Source of the DNA: Escherichia coli
GTDB taxonomy: Bacteria; Pseudomonadota; Gammaproteobacteria; Enterobacterales; Enterobacteriaceae
Length of the DNA: 64,000 nucleotides
Reading direction: 5' to 3' (one strand)
NCBI RefSeq assembly: GCF_024223415.1
Contig: NZ_CP100500.1
The notes beneath the pieces are model-generated. The model was not told where the DNA came from. It saw only the letters and a list, made by a program, of their open reading frames with translations, and did no database searches. A program made the position numbers and the translations under genes. Positions 20,460 to 21,032 of this stretch are shown here, one piece after another. How positions within the stretch are numbered: the first letter of the stretch is position 1; each line of letters begins with the position of its first letter.

Positions 20460-21032
20460 ATGCAACGCTGGTTTCTGCCTTTTCTTTCGACTCTGTTGCT
20501 GTTACAGGGTTGTGTTGCCGCTGCGCTGGTCGGTACGGCTGCTGTGGGTACTAAAGTGTCAGTGGACCCCCGAAGTGCTGGAACGCAGATTGATGATGAA
20601 ATTCTGGAAGCAAGGGTCAGCCGTGTGCTGTCGAAGGACTCACAACTCAGGGGGGATGCGCGAATCATCGTCACAGCATACCAGGGCACTGTACTGCTGA
20701 CAGGGCAGGTACCAGACCGTAGTGCAGGTGAAAAAGCCCGTCAGATTGCAGATGGTGTTGAGGGGACTGTGCAGGTATGGAATGAAATAAGGACGGGAAA
20801 ACCACTTCGTGCTGATAAAACAGCTACTGATGCGTGGCTGACCACAAAAATCCGGGCACAGTTACTGAAGAGCAGCAGGGTGAAACTGTCAGATGTTAAG
20901 GTACTGACGGAGAATGGTGAAGTCTTTCTTATGGGGAGAGTTACAGAGAAGGAAGGACAGGCTGCAGCTGATATCGCCAGTCGCGTGGCGGGGGTGAAAC
21001 ACGTCATCACCGCATTCAGTTATATACGCTGA
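20460..21032 (+). CDS. BON-domain lipoprotein, paralog of DolP/YraP
   Basis: Lipobox LLLLQGC, then two BON domains; …GTAAVGTKVSVDPRSAGTQIDD… and …TENGEVFLMGRVTEKEGQAAADIASRVAGVKHVITAF… near-collinear with DolP. Confidence 0.8.
   Translation: MQRWFLPFLSTLLLLQGCVAAALVGTAAVGTKVSVDPRSAGTQIDDEILEARVSRVLSKDSQLRGDARIIVTAYQGTVLLTGQVPDRSAGEKARQIADGVEGTVQVWNEIRTGKPLRADKTATDAWLTTKIRAQLLKSSRVKLSDVKVLTENGEVFLMGRVTEKEGQAAADIASRVAGVKHVITAFSYIR

Follow-up and report, generated by a model that had tools for sequence, protein, structure and literature searches.

A gene of the DolP (YraP) family, here called dolP2, was found in a 64,000-nucleotide stretch of Escherichia coli DNA (contig NZ_CP100500.1 of assembly GCF_024223415.1, in the following referred to as the window) and is probably a functional, horizontally acquired member of this family, which travels on a mosaic integrative island and supplements the core diaA-dolP locus. 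DolP is a conserved, virulence-associated factor of envelope integrity, the role of which is debated between support of BamA folding, activation of NlpD/AmiC and sensing of anionic lipids. The gene and the signals around it are arranged as follows:

20325..20459, plus strand: conserved upstream stretch of about 135 nucleotides, presumed promoter region, common to all five alleles compared from the island-borne group (class A, see below)
20448..20453, plus strand: Shine-Dalgarno-like GGAGGA, read from the sequence, 6-7 nucleotides 5' of the dolP2 ATG (spacer 20454-20459)
20460..21032, plus strand: dolP2, island-borne gene for a DolP-family outer membrane lipoprotein with signal peptide (residues 1-17) and lipobox (LLQG directly before C18)
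21028..21069, no strand assigned: hairpin between the convergent genes dolP2 and yebF2, overlapping the dolP2 stop codon

DolP2 as a Member of the DolP Family

The open reading frame (ORF) extends on the plus strand from the ATG at 20460 to a TGA ending at 21032 and encodes 190 amino acids with the N-terminus MQRWFLPFLSTLLLLQGCVAA. The signal peptide MQRWFLPFLSTLLLLQG is followed by C18-V-A-A, and the resulting LLQGC-VAA motif is identical in core DolP. In the family alignment the column of the lipobox cysteine is 99% conserved. A lipobox cysteine with a residue other than Asp in position +2, which is the criterion for sorting to the outer membrane, is found in the dolP2 product and lipidation is predicted. 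A linker up to about residue 39 leads to BON1 (about residues 40-112) and BON2 (about residues 118-188); Pfam BON matches twice (E 7e-34), and these two domains constitute the whole mature protein. The DolP equivalog model NF008247 of NCBIfam yields 276.5 bits against a cut-off of 184 and covers profile positions 10-191 of 192. With the OsmY model NF007858 only 62.2 bits are reached against a cut-off of 174, which argues against an assignment to OsmY, as does the presence of the lipobox cysteine. BLASTP aligns the protein to E. coli core DolP with 114 identities in 185 positions (62%) and zero gaps, and phmmer aligns mature residues 19-190 gap-free to the YraP/DolP structure 7A2D of the PDB (E 1e-61). 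As sequence matches these scores lie far beyond chance. The original prediction for this stretch, which the present analysis followed up, had claimed an LLLLQGC lipobox, dual BON domains and near collinearity with DolP. Lipobox and domains are borne out by the LLQGC motif, the two Pfam BON matches and the NF008247 score, and the collinearity was even understated, as no gap is found outside the signal peptide.

The AlphaFold2 model of DolP2 (70 sequences, predicted local distance difference test score 85) consists of two alpha-beta-beta-alpha-beta units, and the predicted helix alpha-1 of BON2 comprises 20 residues (118-137). In a Foldseek search with this model the best PDB match is DolP (7a2d, E 8e-18), followed by BonA of Acinetobacter baumannii and DolP of Neisseria gonorrhoeae. 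Despite 61% sequence identity the global TM-score against 7a2d is only 0.42-0.45 with a root mean square deviation of 9.5, which may be attributed to the orientation of the domains towards each other, the flexible linker and the fact that 7a2d is a nuclear magnetic resonance model.

A Copy in Addition to the Core Gene

The core dolP gene of E. coli is located in the order lpoA-yraN-diaA-dolP-yraQ. None of lpoA, yraN, diaA and yraQ is present in the 64-kb window (DiaA, YraN and YraQ by tblastn), which is accessory DNA throughout, made up of island, insertion sequence (IS), prophage and accessory metabolism genes, in agreement with the claim that dolP2 is a second copy on an accessory island. 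Synteny with the core locus is thus lacking, and so is near-identity to the core allele of the species, as dolP2 and E. coli core dolP share 62% of the protein and 60.5% of the nucleotide sequence. Because its neighbours differ and the identity is only 62%, dolP2 is to be regarded as a member of the DolP family but not as the core orthologue. Judged by what can be tested in a sequence, it shows all characteristics of the family, the only one that fails being the synteny and near-identity that would identify the core orthologue itself.

Do the genomes that carry dolP2 also contain the core gene? Genes with at least 96.7% identity to dolP2, referred to as class A, were detected in only 19 of 5426 complete E. 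coli genomes (about 0.35%), in 18 of these over the full length, and all 19 carriers have at least two dolP places each. In Ch1 both copies can be located: the core dolP at 2,811,496-2,812,071 within lpoA-yraN-diaA-dolP-yraQ, and dolP2 at 2,477,708-2,478,280 within a pheV island, 333 kb away from the core copy. The separate core dolP that the original prediction proposed to look for is therefore present in Ch1 and, by the count of places, in all carriers, and the observation that would have spoken for a mere core gene, a single copy in synteny with the core locus, was not made. Since core dolP is found, nearly invariant, in 5424 of the 5426 complete genomes, its presence in the window's own genome can very safely be assumed, although it was not seen directly. 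In the genome search the core gene matches dolP2 with about 70% nucleotide identity and over only part of its length.

By the Prokaryotic Genome Annotation Pipeline (PGAP) dolP2 is annotated as dolP. The exact DolP2 protein of the window is already public on 83 contigs, all of them Escherichia, and at least 999 contigs carry a sister allele; all public sources name it YraP/DolP without any remark on its status as second copy. A literature search found no published description of an island-borne or paralogous yraP/dolP. The gene is best filed as a previously unremarked, mobile member or sub-lineage of the known DolP family and not as a new system. According to the listed sources, 12 of the 19 class A carriers come from chicken or chicken meat, one is named 'kylling', two are from black kite and one is from a human, with three unlisted. 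The 14 or 15 carriers from birds could be due to a lineage or island associated with avian hosts, or else to biased sampling.

Conserved Residues and Selection

Among 110 diverse representatives of the DolP family 31 alignment columns are at least 70% conserved. DolP2 retains 29 of these, the same 29 that are retained in E. coli core DolP, including (in core numbering) C19, D37, R39, D47, G83, D125, W127, T129 and G160, which argues for the same basic biochemistry as that of DolP. In the lipid-binding helix W126 and L136 of DolP2 correspond to W127 and L137 of DolP, and T130, K131, R133 and Q135 are kept as well. The changes relative to DolP in this part (G120D, E121K, S123A, N124T, T126A, S134A) all affect positions that are variable in the family. 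BON1 is the most diverged part with 54% identity to core DolP, as compared to 70% for the bulk of BON2; among the published crosslink positions in BON1 V72 and V101 are conserved, V41 and V52 are replaced by Ala and I64 by Leu. Moreover, mature DolP2 is more basic than core DolP, with an isoelectric point (pI) of 9.6 versus 8.9.

Between the alleles of the window and of AR_0085, 13 synonymous and 6 nonsynonymous differences were counted, corresponding to a ratio of nonsynonymous to synonymous rates (dN/dS) of 0.15 (binomial p 1e-4 versus neutrality). The eight variable amino acid positions among the five class A alleles are located in the signal peptide, the linker or BON1, and BON2 is invariant. 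This pattern of substitutions indicates that dolP2 is under purifying selection. In addition, the stretch of about 135 nucleotides upstream of the gene is kept even in GF60, where an IS21 element is inserted just 5' of it. A scan for the sigma-E consensus gave only weak matches 5' of dolP2, which are as weak as those 5' of core dolP.

Origin of the Lineage

Where does dolP2 come from? DolP2 is 61-63% identical to each of the core DolPs of Enterobacteriaceae, and those are 83-88% identical to each other. Among 5.8 billion proteins no relative with more than 68% identity was found outside DolP2's own 98% cluster, and no donor species can be named from this search; a search of representatives clustered at 50% supplied outgroups only. 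The matches with 64-68% identity are mainly a second kind of extra dolP in E. coli, referred to as class B, plus the variants P0004 and P0093. Class B dolP was detected in a further 27 complete E. coli genomes, many of them Shiga toxin-producing E. coli (STEC) or bovine isolates and some human ones, and is 65-66% identical to class A and 74-75% to core DolP. Examples are WP_001238641.1 (STEC1585) and WP_085432002.1 (A33), and its lineages include P0003, P0012 and P0093. The class B copies were located at the following positions of the extracted loci:

L005, 11958-12533: class B dolP
L006, 11958-12533: class B dolP
L010, 8001-8576: class B dolP
L011 and L012: class B dolP, also present

Class B dolP is always preceded by a DUF465 gene and located at the integrase-proximal end of a pheV-integrated element that encodes ArdC, TraI_2 and a UvrD-like helicase. 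In some genomes it adjoins genes for YadA-like adhesins (trimeric autotransporters).

A phylogeny of the paralog, which had also been suggested as a check, separates dolP2 from the core genes: in a neighbour-joining tree of 190 columns classes A and B group together outside the Enterobacteriaceae core cluster, albeit with a modest bootstrap value of 63. Between dolP2 and core dolP synonymous sites are saturated (third-position mismatch 0.64). Relative-rate tests reveal a significant acceleration of class A with four of seven outgroups and none of class B. These data indicate that dolP2 is neither a recent duplicate within E. coli nor a recent capture from a sequenced genus. Instead, the 61-63% identity compared to the 83-88% among core DolPs, the saturated synonymous sites and the rate tests point to an old, mobile and somewhat fast-evolving DolP lineage.

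Genomic Setting and Mobility

The neighbourhood of dolP2 in the window consists of the following features:

17021-17392, minus strand: truncated sitB, after sitA; sitCD absent
17392..18306, minus strand: sitA, binding protein of a Mn/Fe ABC transporter, intact; remnant of sitABCD
19284..19718, plus strand: gene for a DoxX-family membrane protein, belonging to the class A island segment
19843..20136, minus strand: small divergent ORF of 97 amino acids with a weak GrxA-like/glutaredoxin-like match (E 9e-8) below the family cut-offs
21079..21390, minus strand: yebF-like gene (yebF2), convergent with dolP2, GTG-started ORF of 103 amino acids, probably a pseudogene
21712..21951, plus strand: remnants of an outer membrane protein (OMP) beta-barrel gene (amino acids 15-40) and of a sulfatase-family gene (its 3' end); deletion/replacement scar
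22282..27075, plus strand: lipopolysaccharide (LPS) modification operon of plasmid type with four genes, chromosomal copy, 1.2 kb downstream of dolP2
22282-23103, plus strand: polysaccharide deacetylase gene of this operon
23106-24209, plus strand: GT4 glycosyltransferase gene
24349-26016, plus strand: cptA-like phosphoethanolamine transferase pseudogene with an in-frame stop at 25402-25404 and a 5' frameshift
26140-27075, plus strand: lpxM-like gene for a lipid A myristoyltransferase (a second lpxM), which appears intact
27103..28158, minus strand: gene for a tetratricopeptide repeat (TPR) protein, elsewhere located between the module and the island integrase
28418-29188, strand not given: ORF of an IS110-family transposase, at the position expected for the integrase

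Thirteen class A contexts were compared, the window, L001-L003, L007 and L016-L023. Eleven of them share a constant module that consists of the small hypothetical gene (minus strand), dolP2 (plus strand), yebF2 (minus strand) and a gene for an OMP beta-barrel of 247-249 amino acids (plus strand). On its 3' side the module is followed either by a sulfatase-family gene, the TPR gene and an integrase or by a leoA dynamin cluster and an integrase. In AR_0085 (L007) a full sitABCD operon flanks it. The dolP2 ORF is intact in the window and the 12 other contexts, as judged by sequence or gene calls. Class A islands are found at several chromosomal sites: by ycjD/sapF, by ulaD, at pheV, and beside a run of genes that by Pfam content resembles glnH-dps-rhtA-ompX. 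On plasmids class A was not found in a tblastn search of 72,556 plasmid records, which gave 12 matches. Eleven of these are records of 0.69-5.4 Mb with a core-type dolP at 41-68% identity and are most plausibly misfiled chromosomes or chromosome fragments; the twelfth is a record of 90,865 bp from Enterobacter roggenkampii (64% identity).

Within the module the 97-amino-acid ORF is a recurrent upstream neighbour of dolP2, in which a CPSV motif replaces the dithiol motif and for which the RefSeq names vary between hypothetical and thioredoxin-domain protein. The yebF2 gene has lost the region of its signal peptide in the window and in Ch1, through an upstream stop or a frameshift (region up to 21480), and is intact in the 11 other contexts, encoding a secreted-type protein of 117 amino acids with signal peptide. 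It scores slightly below the NCBIfam cut-offs for YebF (104.5 versus 110 and 111.4 versus 147). A YebF-like fold is also found in the colicin M immunity protein Cmi, at which the NCBIfam model name 'YebF_not_Cmi' hints; a function of yebF2 in colicin M immunity was considered and dropped, as there is no colicin or lysis gene nearby. The hairpin between the two convergent genes has a folding energy of -25.1 kcal/mol (z -4.95; 0 of 200 shuffled sequences as stable) and looks like a bidirectional terminator.

The window and Ch1, which are 99.5% identical over 20011-28395, represent a derived state, and it is only in these two that the LPS-modification operon lies beside dolP2; the 11 other contexts have other neighbours. 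In the window the cptA-like gene is read as two ORFs of the same frame split by a stop codon, and the annotation of Ch1 gives it as frameshifted with an internal stop. The region 22246-23000, which is mostly the deacetylase gene, is 87-88% identical at the nucleotide level to copies on about 540 E. coli and Shigella plasmids, and an intact deacetylase-GT4-cptA-lpxM operon is carried by pSTEC866. On pO157 this type of operon bears the name ecf, and a role in LPS modification has been ascribed to it (PMC2811833). That dolP2 and the LPS-modification operon form a single functional unit was considered and rejected, because the two adjoin only in the window and Ch1, where the operon has replaced the OMP and sulfatase genes. 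Their closeness is due to a recent, accidental rearrangement of the mosaic island and not to a conserved unit.

Further away from dolP2, positions 1-16 kb of the window contain genes of a CP4-57-type island (YagK/YfjJ, DUF3987, UvrD-like helicase, Rpn). The gene of the UvrD-like helicase (12212-15057, plus strand) is split into two overlapping ORFs of 377 and 571 amino acids and, in the annotation of GF60, frameshifted. Ankyrin repeats are found in the C-terminal part of the split protein, an unusual combination. On the other side an iol cluster for myo-inositol catabolism with an RpiR-type regulator extends over 29963-38180 and is 99.8-99.9% identical in a subset of E. coli chromosomes; in strain 135 it is located on the opposite side of the dolP2 island. 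The minus strand of 39430-63177 is a segment of a Mu-like myovirus prophage (39-64 kb of the window) encoding a tail fibre with seven fibre repeats, baseplate J, a GPD-like hub, a tape measure protein of 1177 amino acids and the sheath, as well as a Mu-type portal, the large terminase and an SLT transglycosylase.

Proposed Function and Alternatives

How could DolP2 act? From its conserved features it most likely works as a DolP. In core DolP Cys19 is acylated and helix alpha-1 of BON2 inserts into anionic phospholipids, W127E and L137E being the most damaging replacements (Bryant et al., PMC7806268). By analogy the DolP2 precursor would be exported and receive its acyl groups at Cys18; the Val in position +2, which DolP has as well, would direct it via the Lol system to the inner leaflet of the outer membrane. 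There the extended helix alpha-1 of BON2 (118-137, with W126 and L136) could insert among anionic phospholipids, and BON1, the published contact domain of DolP for BamA and OmpA, would face periplasmic partners such as these two. With a promoter of its own, independent of the core locus, dolP2 would in effect be a second source of DolP activity and add to the robustness of the envelope, the outcome being redundancy or an extra dosage. Such a second source agrees with published data, in which DolP benefits cells under envelope stress in a dose-dependent manner and extra DolP is not antagonistic. The DolPs of Vibrio, Pasteurella and Neisseria complement an E. coli ∆dolP strain (Bryant et al., PMC7806268). 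Because even these proteins from outside the Enterobacteriaceae complement, it is likely that DolP2, the closest relatives of which outside its own clade are the core DolPs of Enterobacteriaceae, binds phosphatidylglycerol and cardiolipin, localises to the division site and rescues the sensitivity of ∆dolP cells to vancomycin and SDS. A shifted preference of BON1 for its partners is possible in view of the divergence of this domain.

Several observations weigh against a second DolP that is expressed and unchanged in function. No match to the sigma-70 consensus was found upstream of dolP2, and the local DNA is AT-rich, with 45.5% GC as compared to 51.5% for the window; AT-rich DNA is typical of foreign DNA silenced by H-NS. 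The neighbours in the window are decaying, with the signal peptide of yebF2 lost, the cptA-like gene a pseudogene and the OMP gene deleted. In Tajima's relative-rate test with the nearest outgroup class A has 30 unique changes versus 9 in the core gene (p 8e-4). Because class A evolves faster and its BON1 shares only 54% of the residues with BON1 of core DolP, some change of function in class A appears possible.

Alternatively, dolP2 may have co-evolved with the YebF-like protein and the OMP barrel as a specialised helper, the diverged BON1 of which serves their assembly or export. This explanation, which we consider rather unlikely, could account for the module of hypothetical gene, dolP2, yebF2 and OMP barrel gene staying constant in 11 of 13 contexts while its surroundings vary, for the YadA-like autotransporter genes next to class B dolP in some genomes, and for the fact that in an accelerated lineage it is the BamA- and OmpA-contacting domain that diverged most. 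However, dolP2 is intact in the window and Ch1 although there the OMP gene is deleted and yebF2 is without signal peptide, and the dolP gene of the P0003 lineage adjoins DUF465 and neither an adhesin nor an OMP gene. Moreover, linkage on an island may merely reflect common descent.

It is less probable still that dolP2 is a silent or decaying passenger, an unexpressed relic that hitch-hikes on a degrading island. The pseudogenes, IS fragments and deletion scars around it, the AT-rich setting with no consensus promoter found and one carrier, GF4, in which only nucleotides 1-533 of 573 are matched would be in line with such decay. A relic would, however, hardly be expected to remain intact as an ORF in the window and 12 other contexts and full-length in 18 of 19 genomes, to show a dN/dS of about 0.15 (p 1e-4) with an invariant BON2 and all residues that core DolP keeps, or to conserve its ribosome binding site and about 135 upstream nucleotides despite an IS21 insertion.

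As a broader and quite doubtful idea it could be imagined that the diverged DolPs of classes A and B serve the mobile E. coli elements on which they reside as a dedicated buffer against envelope stress or as an assembly aid for the outer membrane and secreted cargo brought in with them. For class A such cargo would be the YebF-like exported protein and the OmpX/OmpW-like barrel and for class B the YadA-like adhesins. BON2 would then be kept for membrane anchoring and BON1 retuned to new clients. If this were true, DolP would be a modular, transferable factor supporting the BAM complex, and the mobile copies would amount to a natural domain-swap experiment.

The original prediction had suggested specialised or dominant envelope remodelling, a speculative idea that the nearby LPS-modification genes may have prompted. 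Very improbable is a dominant or interfering variant in which DolP2 competes with core DolP for binding to BamA, lipid or the division site and thereby reprogrammes the envelope. The higher pI of the mature protein (9.6 versus 8.9), the exchange of E121 for Lys at the start of the lipid-binding helix and published crosslinking suggesting oligomerisation of DolP could be quoted in its favour as indirect hints. No feature specific for interference was found, however, DolP2 and core DolP keep an identical set of conserved residues, and the published effect of extra DolP is a benefit, not antagonism. That dolP2 is simply core dolP, the only copy at its normal locus, as the PGAP name and the passed equivalog model might suggest, is refuted by synteny and two-copy evidence, namely the lack of lpoA, yraN, diaA and yraQ in the window, the identities of 62% and 60.5% and the presence of both copies in carriers.

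Significance and Comparison With Known Systems

As a functional, additional DolP, dolP2 would provide a natural variant for separating the domain functions of the protein, because the lipid-binding BON2 is conserved and the BamA-facing BON1 strongly diverged. It is also a further example of islands that carry spare envelope genes. In carriers, which are mostly E. coli of avian source, knock-out, transposon sequencing (Tn-seq) and essentiality studies could be confounded by redundancy, because annotation pipelines name both copies "dolP".

DolP2 resembles E. coli DolP/YraP (P64596; PDB 7A2D) in length (190 versus 191 amino acids), in the LLQGC-VAA motif and in its two BON domains, which align gap-free with 62% identity. 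Core DolP is the product of a sigma-E-regulated gene for a dual-BON outer membrane lipoprotein at lpoA-yraN-diaA-dolP-yraQ, whereas dolP2 is located on a mobile island and therefore cannot use the upstream region of the core locus. Unlike core DolP, which is present in about 100% of genomes, dolP2 occurs in about 0.35%, is diverged in BON1, more basic and faster-evolving. With class B dolP it has in common that an additional, intact gene of the dolP family is carried by a mobile element in genomes that also possess the core gene; class B differs in being closer to core DolP (74-75%), paired with DUF465, associated with STEC, bovine and human isolates and not accelerated. OsmY shares the dual-BON fold but has a Sec/signal peptidase I signal, no lipobox and no equivalent of W127 (PMC7806268). 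BonA (6v4v) and N. gonorrhoeae DolP (6xmv) also share this fold and are only 27-28% identical to DolP2. Like the ecf-type operon on plasmids, the dolP2 island is a mobile element that bears an additional, diverged version of a housekeeping gene for the envelope; the ecf-type genes encode LPS-modifying enzymes, some with published phenotypes (PMC2811833), whereas dolP2 encodes a non-enzymatic lipoprotein.

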